Shown one piece after another: positions 22,870 through 52,793 of a stretch of DNA of 64,000 nt. Numbering within the stretch: the stretch's first letter is position 1; every line of letters starts with the position of its first letter. The translations under genes were made by a program, and so were the position numbers. The DNA is from Escherichia phage EC.P1. The stretch lies in the sequence record PQ657772.1. One strand, given 5' to 3'. Under the pieces are notes generated by a model, which saw nothing but the letters and a program-made list of their open reading frames with translations, did no database searches and had not been told where the DNA came from.

Positions 22870-23370
22870 TTAGGTCACAGCTTTGTATTTCTCCATTGCT
22901 TCGGTGATATTCAATACTGCTTGCGGTACGTCACTTTTGTTGTATGCAGTGGTTAGTTTTTCCATGTTATTGAGAAGACTTAGAAACAATGGAAGTACTT
23001 CTGCATTGTCACTGAAGTTACAATCATTGACAGTACTCAATTGGAATAACTCACCTGCATCAACATTGAGTGTGTTGTATTCTTTAACAATGTTTTCTTC
23101 AGTATTGAAGATGTAGAATACAGTCCCCATGTGGTGTAAGTATACACCAGTATCATTCTGAATATGACATGGGGTGATTACAATTGCTGTGTTATCAATA
23201 TTATTTACTATTGTCAAACGCAGACTATGTAACCCAAAGATTACAGTACAATCCTTTGTGCTGTGTTGGATCTGGTCACTAGTAAAGGAAGACCCACTAG
23301 AAGTTTTAGACCCATTTAGTATTTCTTTGATAATTTTAAATGAATACTTCATCGAATTAGTTAAAAGCAT
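22870..23370 (-). CDS. hypothetical protein (166 aa)
   Basis: ORF, minus strand. Confidence 0.5.
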   Translation of the reverse strand: MLLTNSMKYSFKIIKEILNGSKTSSGSSFTSDQIQHSTKDCTVIFGLHSLRLTIVNNIDNTAIVITPCHIQNDTGVYLHHMGTVFYIFNTEENIVKEYNTLNVDAGELFQLSTVNDCNFSDNAEVLPLFLSLLNNMEKLTTAYNKSDVPQAVLNITEAMEKYKAVT

Positions 23371-23770
23371 GAACTTTACCTTTAAGTAAATTAATTAATG
23401 TTCGCATAGATTCAGTACTGACAGTCCCAAAATCAACACCTAAGCACTCGTATTGAAAGAACTCAATAGAATCAATTGAGTCCAAAGGAATCTCAACAAC
23501 CTGATTCCCTATACCAGACATAGTAACATTGCTTTTATTAATCGTCAAGAAGTTTTTTGAATAAGTATTAAATTTTAGTGAAATCGCATCGGGGTGCTTT
23601 GTAACAATGCAGTACTGGGAGCCATACACATATAGTACTTTACTTTCACTAAGATCTGTTTTAAAAAAATGAATCCCATTGAAGTATTTCTCATTGGCTC
23701 CCATCGCCGCGATTAGTTCATCTGTTGTTGTTAACCTTGTTTCGTTCTTCGTTAAACTGTTGAAAAGCAT
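23357..23770 (-). CDS. family A paralog (divergent)
   Basis: motif EFFQYECLG. Confidence 0.45.
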   Translation of the reverse strand: MLFNSLTKNETRLTTTDELIAAMGANEKYFNGIHFFKTDLSESKVLYVYGSQYCIVTKHPDAISLKFNTYSKNFLTINKSNVTMSGIGNQVVEIPLDSIDSIEFFQYECLGVDFGTVSTESMRTLINLLKGKVHAFN

Positions 23771-24191
23771 AGAATACTACCTTAACCATTTGTAGTGTTT
23801 CAGACATTACTTCTGATGAAAATTCAACATCATTGAATTTCAGCATAGTGTTCTGTGTAAAGAAAGTTGCTTCTAAGTCTTCTAGATTGAAGGGTTCATC
23901 AAACAAATTAGTACTGAACATGTCAGTCTTCTTCTTGTATGTGAACAAGAATTTGGAATTATAACGAAGAACTATTTCATCTTTATTGACCAGAATGCGT
24001 GCAATGTTCTGACGTGCTAATGTGGTAATGTTTAAATTGAACACGTTCTTGCGTGTTTCTGTGATATCAACAAAATACCCATCTCCCTGATGGATATTAC
24101 ATCGTACATCCAACCCTTTCTGTACTGTATTGAACAGTGCATCTTGAATAAAATAATTTGCTGTATCGATGTTTCCTAAAATGTCTAACAT
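23718..24191 (-). CDS. family A paralog (divergent)
   Basis: motif ATFFTQNTML. Confidence 0.45.
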   Translation of the reverse strand: MLDILGNIDTANYFIQDALFNTVQKGLDVRCNIHQGDGYFVDITETRKNVFNLNITTLARQNIARILVNKDEIVLRYNSKFLFTYKKKTDMFSTNLFDEPFNLEDLEATFFTQNTMLKFNDVEFSSEVMSETLQMVKVVFYAFQQFNEERNKVNNNR

Positions 24192-24703
24192 AACTTCTCC
24201 TTGATTGCTGTCATATTTAGAAGAAATTCTTCAAGCAATTCCTCTGTAACATACTCAACATACCAGAATATCACAATATCTTTTGAAAGTCGAGTATTCT
24301 TAAAAATATCTACTAACTCTTTGTAGTACTCAAGATCATATACATCTTTTATAATTAGTGAGTACTGAAATAGTGATTCTTCAGTTAACTTAAATTCTGG
24401 ATATAGTAAGTCATTAAATTCTAATGATTCTGATTGTACTTTTATTTTAGTGAAGTCATTTGTTAATCCACCATTACATCCATATAATGCAGCGTAATTC
24501 ACGAACTTGGCTTTTGGATTAAAATCAAGAACAGTTTCACCATTATATGACAATCGGTGGAACGCCGTGAACTTTGTAATTTGCCACGGTTGCTTAATAT
24601 CTAAGTCATTTATGTCTTTATTATTGTACATAAGAACAGTGAATATTTCAGCAATCTTCAATAATAATTTAGTACGTGCTAGTACTGTCATAGGTTCAAT
24701 CAT
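24185..24703 (-). CDS. family A paralog
   Basis: motif EESLFQYSLI. Confidence 0.6.
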   Translation of the reverse strand: MIEPMTVLARTKLLLKIAEIFTVLMYNNKDINDLDIKQPWQITKFTAFHRLSYNGETVLDFNPKAKFVNYAALYGCNGGLTNDFTKIKVQSESLEFNDLLYPEFKLTEESLFQYSLIIKDVYDLEYYKELVDIFKNTRLSKDIVIFWYVEYVTEELLEEFLLNMTAIKEKLC

Positions 24704-25116
24704 TATACACCTTCATATTCATCAAGGAAATCTTCGATGATCATTTCTGCATCATCCATATGCATAGCATCAACTTCAACAATGCGAACCTTAGACGTAT
24801 CCCAAATCATATAGCTAGGAACTGTATCTGGTTCGTAATCGTTTTTGTACTGAACTGCATCATAGCCGTTAATTTCGCAGTACTCAATCACTCCACGCCA
24901 TTCGTCGTCACTGCCCATATCCGTCCACAGAAGCACGTTATCAACATCAACTTCTAAGGTATGTAAGTATACTGTATCAGCGTCAACAACGTTCAGTGGG
25001 CTTCTCAGCTTGCGTAATGCAGCTTCTAAAGCACTGTGTTTTCCACCCATATGAAGGCCACCATACGGGATATAAAAGTTATCAATTTTTACAGTACTCG
25101 CATGATACAGTTTCAT
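24703..25116 (-). CDS. hypothetical protein (137 aa), non-family insert
   Basis: ORF without FQxS module. Confidence 0.5.
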   Translation of the reverse strand: MKLYHASTVKIDNFYIPYGGLHMGGKHSALEAALRKLRSPLNVVDADTVYLHTLEVDVDNVLLWTDMGSDDEWRGVIEYCEINGYDAVQYKNDYEPDTVPSYMIWDTSKVRIVEVDAMHMDDAEMIIEDFLDEYEGV

Positions 25117-25125
25117 TATTCATTC

Positions 25126-25710
25126 CTATTTCAGTACTTTGACCAGGGCTTTAACCGCTGTTTCAAGTTGTGCAAAGTCGTTGATTGTAAGATAATGAAT
25201 ACCCAATGTACTCATTTCTGAATCTATTTTACTATACAAATCGAACATGTCAAGTAGATATTGATATGTATATGACTCCGATGACACACATGATTCTTGA
25301 AATAGACGTTCTTCCATATCATTTACTACTTCATCATTTACGTCTCGAATCACACCATCTTTGTATGTGTAGTAAATCTCATCCCATTCATCTGATAAGC
25401 GGAATAGTAAAGGTTTACCATTAAACATCTCAAGGTCATATGCATTGACTTCACTCAATAACATATCATCAGGATCAGGTGTGAAATCGAATTGAGCGAG
25501 TGAAGAACCATCATAATCCTTAAGGAATACACCAATAGCATTCAATTTAACTTCGCCATAATTGCCATTCTTGAACTTTACACGAATATTAATATCAATG
25601 TTTTGAACAGTATCATCATCTTGGAATTGATAATCAATTTTATACTTTTCCCAAAGTTTTTTAATATCTTTAAAGTACTTAATTTTACTTTCTATTTCTT
25701 TAAAGTTCAT
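25126..25710 (-). CDS. family A paralog
   Basis: motif EERLFQESCV. Confidence 0.6.
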   Translation of the reverse strand: MNFKEIESKIKYFKDIKKLWEKYKIDYQFQDDDTVQNIDINIRVKFKNGNYGEVKLNAIGVFLKDYDGSSLAQFDFTPDPDDMLLSEVNAYDLEMFNGKPLLFRLSDEWDEIYYTYKDGVIRDVNDEVVNDMEERLFQESCVSSESYTYQYLLDMFDLYSKIDSEMSTLGIHYLTINDFAQLETAVKALVKVLK

Positions 25711-51543: not shown

Positions 51544-51544
51544 G

Positions 51545-51919
51545 CTAGTATTGCACTGTTCTAATGAAAGTACCTTTACTCATGGATTTAAGCTTATGAA
51601 CCTCTTCCTGCATACCCTTAATTAACCCTAAAGGTATAGGTAAATCATGTACTAAGCTGTACTGAAAGTATTCTTCTTCAGATAAAGTACTAACATCTGG
51701 AATGCCAATTTTAGTTAGATAATCTTGATGTGTTGACCAATAAATTATATCTTCAGTACTATTGTACTCCCCATATACTGAACAATATTGATGAATATCT
51801 TTCCTGTATCCTTGAGCAATAAAGAACTTATCTACTGCATTACCAGCATTAATAGAATTCACTTCGATTGTCACAGTACTTGAGCTTGTTTTTCCTTTAC
51901 TATGCATATTAATCCCCAA
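51545..51919 (-). CDS. family A paralog
   Basis: motif EEEYFQYSLV. Confidence 0.6.
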   Translation of the reverse strand: MGINMHSKGKTSSSTVTIEVNSINAGNAVDKFFIAQGYRKDIHQYCSVYGEYNSTEDIIYWSTHQDYLTKIGIPDVSTLSEEEYFQYSLVHDLPIPLGLIKGMQEEVHKLKSMSKGTFIRTVQY

Positions 51920-52095
51920 ATTAGATATCGAACACTATCAGCTTGATAGTTAGTTCCTACTGTGTGTTTTAATATTAACTCATCTTTCAGTACTGAACAT
52001 TCTGCATTAGATATAGGAAGAGAATTAATTCTTTGAATTTCTGGTCGCAAAATACCGCGAAGCTTGCGGTAATCTTTGTATGATAATATTTTCAT
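51871..52095 (-). CDS. family B paralog (dispersed copy)
   Basis: motif VGTNYQADSVRYLIWGL. Confidence 0.5.
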   Translation of the reverse strand: MKILSYKDYRKLRGILRPEIQRINSLPISNAECSVLKDELILKHTVGTNYQADSVRYLIWGLICIVKEKQAQVL

Positions 52096-52098
52096 TGT

Positions 52099-52440
52099 TT
52101 AGTACTCAACGATGTGTTCTTCATAACCATTAAACTCCGGTTTAGTTTCTTTCATTAGGACTACCATTTTATGTACTAATGGCATAGGAAATTCTAAATC
52201 CCATACTAATGATTCTTGAAAGTATTCTTCTTCAGATAAAGTACTTAAATCTTTAATATCAACGTGCTTGTATATTTTCTTTTCGTAATTAAGAAATGAT
52301 ATATATAAATCATTAACATAAGAATCATAAGTAATTGTGAATGGCTTACCCTTGTAGTCCATTACATCTTTACATAGACTGCATTTGATATATGTATGTT
52401 CTTCTGAACTGTATACATTGAGTTGTATATTAGTTTTCAT
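52099..52440 (-). CDS. family A paralog (near-duplicate of 52455..52793)
   Basis: motif EEEYFQESLVWDLEFPMPLVHKM. Confidence 0.65.
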   Translation of the reverse strand: MKTNIQLNVYSSEEHTYIKCSLCKDVMDYKGKPFTITYDSYVNDLYISFLNYEKKIYKHVDIKDLSTLSEEEYFQESLVWDLEFPMPLVHKMVVLMKETKPEFNGYEEHIVEY

Positions 52441-52454
52441 AGTTACCTTATATA

Positions 52455-52793
52455 TTAATACTCAATAATGTGTTCTTCATAACCATTAGGTACAGGTTTA
52501 GTTTCTTTCATTAGTACTATCATCTTATGTACTAATGGCATAGGAAACTCCAAATCCCATACTAATGATTCTTGAAAGTATTCCTCTTCAGATAAAGTAC
52601 TTAAATCTTCAATGTCAATGTGTTCGTATATGTTATATTTGTAATCAGCAAAAGATATATAAAAACCTCTTGTATTATCATAAGTAAGTGCAAATGGCTT
52701 ACCTTTGTAGTCCATTACAGAGTTACATGTATGGCATTTGATGTATGTACTTGCAAATGATTTATATACCTTGAGTTTTATATTAGTTTTCAT
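52455..52793 (-). CDS. family A paralog (near-duplicate of 52099..52440)
   Basis: motif EEEYFQESLVWDLEFPMPLVHKM. Confidence 0.65.
   Translation of the reverse strand: MKTNIKLKVYKSFASTYIKCHTCNSVMDYKGKPFALTYDNTRGFYISFADYKYNIYEHIDIEDLSTLSEEEYFQESLVWDLEFPMPLVHKMIVLMKETKPVPNGYEEHIIEY

Follow-up and report, generated by a model that had tools for sequence, protein, structure and literature searches.

A large array of diverged paralogues sharing a C-terminal F-Q module near the terminal repeat of an Asteriusvirus jumbo coliphage

The stretch of Escherichia phage EC.P1 analyzed here (64,000 nucleotides, record PQ657772.1; hereafter called the window) carries a tandem array of small paralogous genes on its minus strand at 22870-52793, whose products share a C-terminal module built around an invariant Phe-Gln pair and are here called the F-Q family. 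The window has a GC content of ~32%, every substantial open reading frame (ORF) lies on the minus strand, and by its nucleotide matches it is part of an Asteriusvirus jumbo coliphage, i.e., an E. coli phage with a genome of ~370 kb. Between 30 and 50 kb it is 98% identical to phage Ecwhy_1 and matches PBECO4, 121Q, fEgEco12, and others in patches of 86-97% identity, and all genes beneath these database matches are annotated as 'hypothetical protein'. A direct alignment of fEgEco12 with the window gives 98-99.5% identity.

The FQx[STC] pattern retrieved 36 seed ORFs in this region, with the motif located 40-90 residues from the C-terminus. A family hidden Markov model (HMM) was then iterated to convergence over the 219 window ORFs of at least 60 residues, yielding 47 minus-strand member ORFs of 103-229 residues, 45 of them at 22870-52793 and two at 9568-10832. 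As an iterated HMM holds its own targets, a control HMM was trained only on 27 proteins of Klebsiella phage KP13-7; it recovered 39 of the 47 members together with one borderline ORF (43241-43585, E=7.5e-4) and no other ORF of the window. When the 19 non-member ORFs of at least 95 residues at 19-53 kb were compared with the family profile, all were unrelated save another borderline case (27430-27936, hhalign probability 29%). In view of these two ORFs, the true count in the window may be 48-49. Within the array span, members make up 45 of the 67 non-nested ORFs of at least 60 residues, 45 of the 58 ORFs of at least 100 residues, and 71.5% of the bases, and profile-profile comparison finds no relation to the family in the 14 non-members of at least 95 residues that lie between them. 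Outside the array, the non-member 19313-20161 (282 residues) contains the motif-like PDELMFQLMLTG near residue 80 at a profile probability of 0.9%, which may be due to chance or to a very remote relationship; it is not paralogous to the other 282-residue ORF, which is found at 21338.

A motif family at this location had been proposed by an earlier sequence-only reading, and the HMM result with its 47 ORFs and invariant F-Q pair bears this out far above chance. The array begins at 22870 rather than at 23357 as then given, because 22870-23370 is a member and 23357-23770 is not; the two members at 9568-10257 and 10254-10832 had been missed, and the wording that nearly every ORF belongs to the family is to be reduced to about two thirds (45/67). 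The described co-orientation with overlapping genes was found again, as the minus strand carries every member and neighboring genes overlap at 46 of 66 junctions, and so were the N-terminal subtypes MSLxSAL (38.5-40.8 kb), MKYKMLYTL (46910 and 47257), and MNxIELL (47558 and 48141). The motif had been placed roughly 40-60 residues from the C-terminus, which holds for 39 of 47 members (full range 40-98, median 51). The F-[YF]-x-D tail that was thought to be general is present in the long subtypes (~150-200 residues) and missing from the rest.

In the alignment of the 47 sequences the motif consensus reads [ST]-E-E-x-[YL]-F-Q-x-S-[LT]-[VIL]-[YHW], with Phe and Gln invariant in all 47 members, and FQ is found in 180 of 181 retrieved database proteins. 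Its codons vary synonymously (Phe TTT 28/TTC 19, Gln CAG 30/CAA 17, and Ser written both as AGY and as TCN), from which it follows that the motif is conserved at the protein level. A cause at the DNA level, be it a repeat, recombination, or regulatory site, was considered and is ruled out by the same codon usage.

The family does not correspond to any named one, as had been suspected. None of the 47 members matched a Pfam family at E<=1e-3 or an NCBIfam family at E<=0.01, ten members scanned at E<=1 returned sub-threshold noise only, and the sequence profile matched nothing in the PDB; a comparison at the level of the fold likewise gave no relative among solved structures. Neither the Pfam SUKH-clan models nor a Syd/SMI1-like fold was found, which would have pointed to the SUKH / SMI1-KNR4 superfamily. 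The DNA-mimic anti-restriction proteins Ocr and ArdA, whose marks are a strongly acidic surface and a fold of their own, were also considered as a possible class. The profile search that the sequence-only reading had recommended thus gave no Pfam match and solely PHROGs of unknown function; the two outcomes that it had said would overturn it, a match to a characterized domain and ORFs that are frame artefacts, were not encountered. In PHROGs, the members are spread over 29 families (including 13866, 9317, 12674, 15629, and 19795), all of 'unknown function', and because these look unrelated to one another, the size of the family is invisible in standard annotation.

AlphaFold models were obtained for a long subtype (38900-39388; predicted local distance difference test (pLDDT) 87.8, predicted template modeling score (pTM) 0.84) and a short subtype (41157-41516; pLDDT 84.7, pTM 0.80). 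The long model runs from an N-terminal helix through seven strands and a short helix to the motif helix (109-115), followed by a second helix (121-135), a strand containing the F-Y-x-D element, and a C-terminal helix; in the short model, five strands lead into the motif helix (66-75), after which come a second helix and a closing strand. The elements common to both models define a core of sheet, F-Q helix, helix, and strand; a helix at the N-terminus, further strands, and a final helix are, in the models, optional additions to it. A member is hence pictured as a small (~100-200 residues), mostly acidic, soluble cytoplasmic protein with a single predicted alpha+beta domain, in which an antiparallel beta-sheet packs on the F-Q helix. 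The C-terminal half appears to be the constant scaffold, and the N-terminal helix and beta-sheet vary in length and sequence. Identity between orthologues is 71% upstream of the motif, 81% in the motif, and 78% in the tail (p<=0.0015). The predicted fold is without known relative: Foldseek against viral models returned solely uncharacterized proteins from phages of the same group (121Q, RaK2, Serratia BF, Yersinia fHe-Yen9, GAP32, CBB, and Erwinia pEa_SNUABM_47), for GAP32, CBB, BF, and fHe-Yen9 on structural similarity only. The 47 proteins are acidic (median isoelectric point (pI) 4.84, median net charge -9), ranging from one member with a net charge of -31 (38900-39388) to four basic ones, and no transmembrane segments were found in members once over-long ORF starts were discounted.

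The individual members are given here in the order of the window, always on the minus strand, with E values from the iterated family HMM; identities and dN/dS (the ratio of nonsynonymous to synonymous substitution rates) refer to the 121Q orthologue unless stated. The array opens with a 166-residue member at 22870-23370 (DAGELFQLSTVN, E=2.6e-9) whose orthologue is 66% identical (dN/dS 0.16), followed by members of 172 residues at 24185-24703 (TEESLFQYSLII, E=2.7e-9, dN/dS 0.21) and 194 residues at 25126-25710 (MEERLFQESCVS, E=6.6e-11, dN/dS 0.14). The weakest match of all is the 183-residue member at 26299-26850 (motif SEEQHFQLSTLH, E=6.7e-7). Next to it lies the 193-residue product of 26862-27443 (GEEQYFQLSTIH, E=8e-17), which falls into phrog_34636 (unknown function), and further on those of 28361-28939 (192 residues, VDEELFQMSTVI, E=9.9e-13) and 28926-29510 (194 residues, REAYIFQRSVLD, E=2.6e-8). 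For 30161-30745 (TDEVQFQLSTIC, E=3.6e-15) the longest ORF opens with TTG, but translation probably begins at the ATG near 30679, as the PHROG match begins at residue 23 and the Ecwhy_1 coding sequence measures 519 bp. The 188-residue member 30672-31238 (LESVMFQHMLIH, E=2.9e-11) precedes 31761-32255 (SEESYFQNSLIY, E=7.8e-15), whose product of 164 residues is one of the four basic proteins (pI 9.2).

Next come 32243-32656 (137 residues, TPDELFQYSLVL, E=1e-10), the short-subtype member 32640-33002 (120 residues, SEEELFQESTVN, E=1.2e-16), 32995-33477 (160 residues, TEEMYFQGSCIH, E=3.5e-18), which is the orthologue of 121Q gp388, and 33474-33953 (159 residues, SEEEFFQYSTLY, E=1.4e-18). The longest ORF at 34013-34603 (NEENYFQQSLLN, E=5.9e-13) has a GTG start, with the true start probably near 34546, since the PHROG match sets in at residue 20. 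Two short-subtype members of 112 and 119 residues occupy 34554-34892 (DTGELFQESLVL, E=1.4e-11, synonymous divergence dS 2.99) and 34882-35241 (QEDELFQESLVW, E=8.4e-14). Larger proteins are encoded at 35840-36436 (up to 198 residues, TEENIFQNSLMW, E=1.8e-13), 36749-37285 (178 residues, FDEQCFQLSCTD, E=3.4e-13), 37282-37728 (148 residues, TEEGYFQGSTVY, E=1.3e-16), and 37725-38168 (147 residues, SEDAYFQYSTIY, E=8.3e-16), the last without reciprocal best hit in 121Q; the short-subtype gene 38168-38482 (104 residues, HETFLFQESLVW, E=2.4e-14) leads over to the MSLxSAL subtype. This subtype includes 38479-38922 (147 residues, SEEYYFQNSTLY, E=1.1e-19), the modeled long-subtype protein with its charge of -31 (38900-39388, 162 residues, E=3.8e-24), 39391-39831 (146 residues, TEEYYFQQSLIF, E=2.3e-16), and 39828-40298 (156 residues, SEEFYFQQNTIY, E=1.2e-14), and a similar N-terminus (MTLQSSL) is found in 40300-40791 (163 residues, SEEYYFQQSTVY, E=7.6e-22).

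Both short-subtype products of 40801-41160 (DDGELFQAALVF, E=2.2e-15; orthologue 97% identical) and 41157-41516 (DTAELFQESLVF, E=7.2e-17; the modeled short form) have 119 residues. The ORF 41513-41974 (DDAALFQESLVF, E=8.9e-15) is again the longest possible one, and its true start probably lies near 41890, given an Ecwhy_1 coding sequence of 378 bp. Products of up to 208 and up to 212 residues come from 42676-43302 (SEEMLFQYKTVH, E=1.3e-11) and 43582-44220 (DEAAYFQQSLID, E=4.9e-11), after which follow 44310-44918 (202 residues, IESFFFQLSLVQ, E=1.4e-9), 44915-45490 (191 residues, SAEEYFQYSTLH, E=1.4e-16), whose orthologue pair is the most divergent (42%), 45565-46062 (165 residues, TEEWWFQQNLVH, E=1.8e-16), and 46369-46938 (189 residues, SEEAFFQESLFT, E=1.9e-13). 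The MKYKMLYTL subtype consists of 46910-47260 (up to 116 residues, SEEEFFQMQCVL, E=2.5e-16) and its tandem duplicate 47257-47568 (103 residues, 58% identity to the former, E=2.3e-15), and the MNxIELL subtype of 47558-48064 (168 residues, CSAELFQKSLLY, E=5.8e-19) and 48141-48701 (186 residues, NEAEVFQTSLIY, E=1.2e-16). From there on all members are of the short subtype, namely 49691-50002 (103 residues, QEEELFQYSLIY, E=1.2e-14), 50917-51267 (up to 116 residues, SEEEEFQYLLVH, E=1e-15), 51545-51919 (up to 124 residues, SEEEYFQYSLVH, E=2.4e-18), 52099-52440 (113 residues, SEEEYFQESLVW, E=4.6e-17), which belongs to the youngest duplicate pair, and 52455-52793 (112 residues, E=1.6e-17), which corresponds to fEgEco12 g085 and is transcriptionally the first gene of the array.

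The two outlying members, 9568-10257 (229 residues, SEEEHFQLMMMR, E=7.6e-9) and 10254-10832 (192 residues, GLPEHFQISTLY, E=3.5e-9), stand just upstream of a gene for a T4 Rnl1-like RNA ligase (8164-9306) in the same orientation, the former two genes away from it. A polynucleotide kinase-phosphatase is encoded at 6409-7341. Together with a T4 Rnl1-like ligase, such an enzyme forms the classical tRNA-repair pair against the PrrC anticodon nuclease. The neighborhood also contains a Dam-type N6-adenine methyltransferase (17545-18069, Pfam E=2e-32), which like the tRNA-repair pair belongs to the genes known from counter-defense, and a metallophosphoesterase gene (2270-3028). The ORF 17015-17548 is labeled 'ribonucleotide reductase A' in Ecwhy_1 and 121Q, a label that looks wrong, as only weak cytidylyltransferase-like/FAD-synthetase matches were obtained.

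The syntenic locus of 121Q (158046-198519) contains 42 HMM matches, which form 39 reciprocal best pairs with the window, leaving six window members without a reciprocal best hit. Amino acid identity between these orthologues ranges from 42 to 97% (median 74%), compared with 84% for neighboring non-family genes, and their dN/dS lies between 0.07 and 0.49 with a median of 0.215 (39 pairs), compared with a median of 0.195 for neighboring genes. Judged by these substitution patterns, the members are real genes. The dS values of adjacent array genes relative to 121Q swing from 0.06 to 3.0 (e.g., 40801-41160 versus 34554-34892), which indicates frequent recombination that exchanges old alleles gene by gene and makes the array a mosaic. 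Among the 33 Asteriusvirus records with an orthologue of 33474-33953, two allele classes are seen, at ~95% and ~57% identity. Paralogue pairs are mostly less than 45% identical with saturated dS, and 54% of the members have their best paralogue no more than two positions away, compared with 8% after shuffling. Neighboring best paralogues combined with saturated dS point to tandem duplication that is mostly ancient. It had been suggested to compute dN/dS between recent duplicates, but the closest pair, 52099 and 52455, is just 74% identical (dN/dS 0.48).

When 1.84 billion representative proteins were searched exhaustively with HMMER, 155 clusters were obtained at E<=1e-3, all of small proteins apart from one false positive, P0054 (773 residues, 14 matched stretches), which is a tandem-repeat translation. 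The named matches are Asteriusvirus phages or phage-sized contigs in E. coli assemblies, and 33 members are packed into 20 kb of an unrelated metagenomic contig (101 kb) for which no phage record gave a nucleotide match. A tblastn search with the family consensus found a single marginal match beyond the genus (KP13-7, E=0.8), which was confirmed by the HMM on that locus: 40 kb of Klebsiella phage KP13-7 (Alcyoneusvirus) contain no fewer than 27-28 members, TEEGYFQGSTIY being one of their motifs, and one of these proteins matches RaK2, K64-1, Muenster, and also 121Q gp388 (31% identity, E=9e-6). Judged by this distribution, the family is old and lineage-specific to Rak2-like jumbo phages, comprising Asteriusvirus and Alcyoneusvirus plus one or more uncultured lineages. 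The low dN/dS, the age of the paralogues, the synteny, and the arrays elsewhere speak for an old maintained repertoire rather than a recent accordion-like expansion. The word 'diversifying' in the sequence-only reading is not supported, since the array's dN/dS is as low as in neighboring genes, its paralogues are old, its order is syntenic with 121Q, and other lineages have such arrays too.

The position of the array within the genome can be derived from fEgEco12, for which the genome ends and direct terminal repeats of 20,993 bp have been experimentally established and which has ~670 genes in total (PMC13070987). Window position 64000 equals fEgEco12 position 16,292, placing the boundary of the terminal repeat at about 59.3 kb of the window. 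The first F-Q gene, g085 (27,270), is found ~6.5 kb inward from this boundary and reads inward, so that the array is located beside the terminal repeat with all its genes on one strand, the arrangement looked for in an early host-takeover block. From the left end, a single strand carries 56 small repeat genes, an array of tiny genes, the F-Q array from g085 onward, the Dam methyltransferase, the two outlying members, the RNA ligase, and the polynucleotide kinase-phosphatase.

Promoter-like sequences near the sigma-70 consensus are present in 13 of the 30 intergenic gaps, including four perfect TTGACA-16/18-TATAAT sequences, and matches of at least 11 out of 12 positions all lie on the coding strand (12/12). 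A perfect TTGACA-18-TATAAT sits in a 59-bp intergenic gap within the array (33987-34016, minus strand), and a TTGACA-17-TATAGT with extended -10 in another 59-bp gap (51515-51543, minus strand). Two of these sites are paired with an upstream hairpin terminator, both on the minus strand: in the 87-bp gap at 30101-30162 a hairpin (30143-30162) is followed by TTTACA-17-TATAAT (30101-30129), and at 45518-45577 a hairpin (45556-45577) is followed by TTGACA-17-TACAAT with extended -10. For phage CBB, the corresponding RpoD-promoter region has been proposed to carry early host-takeover genes, and 22 paralogues are listed in the same paper (PMC5259590). Literature searches yielded no transcriptome of an Asteriusvirus infection.

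Beyond the outer end of the F-Q array, a second tandem array occupies 52783-59193 on the minus strand with 28-29 consecutive ORFs of 65-94 residues, beginning precisely where the terminal repeat ends on its inner side. With a median pI of 8.5 its proteins are basic; they have the motif L-GT[ND]-[YFH]-Q-[EQ] in common and without exception belong to phrog_4148 (unknown function); GTNFQ[ED] copies of this type also occur in Klebsiella phage KP13-7. The idea that these tiny genes are truncated F-Q genes was rejected at a profile-profile (hhalign) probability of 0.3%, and they are probably the '>30 very similar genes' reported for 121Q by Hua et al. 2017. The remainder of the window (~59300-64000) falls, by alignment, within the 20,993-bp direct terminal repeat of fEgEco12, and each of its small genes has its own near-perfect sigma-70 promoter, with TTGACA-16-TATAAT in the gaps 60992-61081, 62520-62608, and 63017-63100. 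The last ORF (63547-63990) is cut by the window end; its fEgEco12 counterpart is annotated as a Ser/Thr protein kinase, and it shows a weak Pfam Pkinase match (E=0.006).

The virion proteome of the related phage phAPEC6 comprises 62 proteins identified by mass spectrometry (PMC7247149). No protein between gp347 and gp549, where a family homologue is gp442c, is among them, so that the products of the array are absent from the virion as judged on this proteome. The same virion holds eight proteins of ~30-42 kDa (gp003, 005, 006, 007, 009, 010, 549, and 551; PMC7247149, Table 1), six of them annotated as 'DNA condensation protein' and two as hypothetical, which may represent another paralogue group and possibly inner-body material.

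Taken together, the F-Q proteins are probably non-structural, soluble, and early. A good possibility and the most parsimonious mechanism, although we would stop somewhat short of calling it probable, is that they form a repertoire of early cytoplasmic proteins that bind stoichiometrically, each to a host target of its own, for takeover or counter-defense. Host sigma-70 RNA polymerase would transcribe the array genes early; the array lies a few kb inward of the left terminal repeat of the linear genome and reads inward. Each paralogue would then bind a different host protein and block or decoy it, the targets being either host-takeover targets or components of anti-phage defense. We propose that a distinct target for each paralogue would explain why purifying selection preserves every one of ~45 diverged copies. 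The 'effector, decoy or immunity repertoire' of the sequence-only reading fits this context, in which an apparently early region encodes acidic, non-virion proteins near tRNA-repair and Dam genes.

Several observations weigh against such a repertoire of binders. The gene-wide dN/dS of ~0.2 is below what is often observed where proteins are directly engaged in an arms race, being small and acidic is not specific, and either end of the genome may enter the cell first. Promoter-like sites are overall not enriched relative to shuffled sequence, so that the promoter evidence comes from the strength, strand, and placement of the sites. No expression, interaction, toxicity, or host-range results for any member were found in the literature. 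Finally, the invariant Gln could equally mean one shared ligand or partner.

This last point leads to a different arrangement, which we regard as rather unlikely: the members would be adaptors whose C-terminal module (F-Q helix, second helix, and closing strand) docks onto a common partner (e.g., RNA polymerase, a host protease, or some phage machine), and whose variable N-terminus recruits substrates, following the logic of F-box/PRANC proteins. The invariance of F and Q in all members and nearly all database proteins, the recurrence of the motif in Klebsiella phage members, the constant C-terminal versus variable N-terminal half in alignments and orthologue divergence, and the short subtype that retains the core alone would all agree with it. 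However, the motif helix is among the high-confidence core elements of both models, a position that suits part of the structural core better than a docking surface on the outside, as far as the models go, and no candidate partner was identified. Its more specific form, with ~45 interchangeable adaptors delivering host or defense proteins to a host AAA+ protease or phage machine, is somewhat less likely again. Only slightly behind the general adaptor arrangement in plausibility is an immunity- or antitoxin-like role, in which each paralogue would neutralize one toxin (an abortive-infection effector, a toxin of a toxin-antitoxin system, or a bacteriocin nuclease) or exclude competing phages, as in bacterial polymorphic-toxin immunity arrays. 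That the paralogues are diverged, arranged in tandem, and encode small acidic proteins of alpha+beta type would suit this role, as would the anti-PrrC tRNA-repair genes in the neighborhood, and it would be a special case of the binder repertoire; no toxin genes were seen in the array, however, and its non-member ORFs have no Pfam matches.

We give much less credit to three further explanations. The resemblance of E-x-x-Y-x-Q followed by G/S to the NIa site of tobacco etch virus (TEV) could suggest a protease processing site. The TEV NIa protease cleaves ENLYFQ/S. Indeed, the Y (-1) and the E (-4) of such a site are both present in 16 of the 47 members, and two members carry G at +2, but the motif is predicted to be helical within a high-confidence part of both models, 15 members have L instead of Y, and the window showed no protease of the NIa or 3C-like kind, which makes processing hardly credible. 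The array could also be filler DNA with little or no function, fixed as a larger capsid tolerates extra DNA (the genome-size ratchet of Hua et al. 2017). Tandem duplication has been proposed as a route of jumbo-phage genome growth by Hua et al. 2017 with reference to a 121Q array, and the close spacing of best paralogues (54% versus the 8% expected) agrees with it; purifying selection nevertheless disfavors this explanation, with dN/dS of 0.07-0.49 across all 39 orthologue pairs, a motif preserved despite synonymous change, and arrays that persist across genera, and we consider it very unlikely. Equally slim is the chance that the proteins are packaged in a capsid inner body or ejected. Asteriusvirus capsids contain an inner body (phAPEC6; 121Q bubblegrams), and phiKZ has head-protein paralogues with a conserved C-terminus (PMC12676376), but none of the 62 phAPEC6 virion proteins is a family member, no Pfam PF12699 match was found, and the array lies in a promoter-rich, early-type region distant from the structural genes.

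With 47 of ~670 phage genes (fEgEco12 count), the family represents ~7% of the gene complement and occupies 21 kb, and in the literature on PBECO4, Asteriusvirus, phAPEC6, RaK2, and jumbo-phage paralogues, its existence, motif, fold, and spread are not described. The array is a natural case of scaffold-based diversification in a bacterial virus. If its members bind host proteins, they would constitute a ready library of ~45 inhibitors on one scaffold against targets or defenses of E. coli, Salmonella, and Klebsiella, which would bear on the host range of jumbo phages under therapy development. If they are adaptors, ~7% of the genes would encode a phage counterpart of F-box/PRANC adaptors with a fold not seen before. 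And if block deletions cost no fitness, the family would become a test case for jumbo-phage genome growth.

Among known systems, the terminal-redundancy module of SPO1, the pre-early region of T5, and the early genes of T4 likewise contain many small genes of unknown function at or near a long terminal repeat, and they share with the array the single inward orientation and the non-virion products; their host sigma-70-type promoters are paralleled by the promoter-like sequences of the array. These blocks consist of unrelated genes, however, whereas two thirds of the genes here form one family, and early timing is here inferred. The MGF360/505 families of African swine fever virus (ASFV) and the ankyrin-PRANC and Bcl-2-like families of poxviruses are also tandem paralogues near a genome end that combine constant and variable modules, and their gain and loss among strains is mirrored by the six members without 121Q reciprocal best hit; the array differs in belonging to a bacterial virus, in its unrelated predicted fold, and in a stable copy number and syntenic order between species. 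SUKH/SMI1-KNR4 and other Imm arrays resemble it as small alpha+beta proteins encoded by diverged tandem paralogues, but they are bacterial and stand beside toxin genes, unlike the F-Q array.

The closest published parallel concerns the same genus and genome region: the 121Q array of Hua et al., likewise read as tandem duplication in a statement that was repeated in a 2020 paper. That sentence probably refers to the tiny-gene array, whose genes do resemble one another, the F-Q family being far more diverged and split over 29 PHROGs. The phiKZ head paralogues gp92-97, 153, 162, and 163 (Pfam PF12699), which are packaged and partly injected, are jumbo-phage paralogues defined by a conserved C-terminal part (PMC12676376) like the F-Q proteins; in contrast to them, the F-Q proteins are absent from the virion proteome and do not match PF12699. 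Set beside these systems, the F-Q family is a large unnamed family and a variant of the tandem viral multigene families located in accessory early regions.

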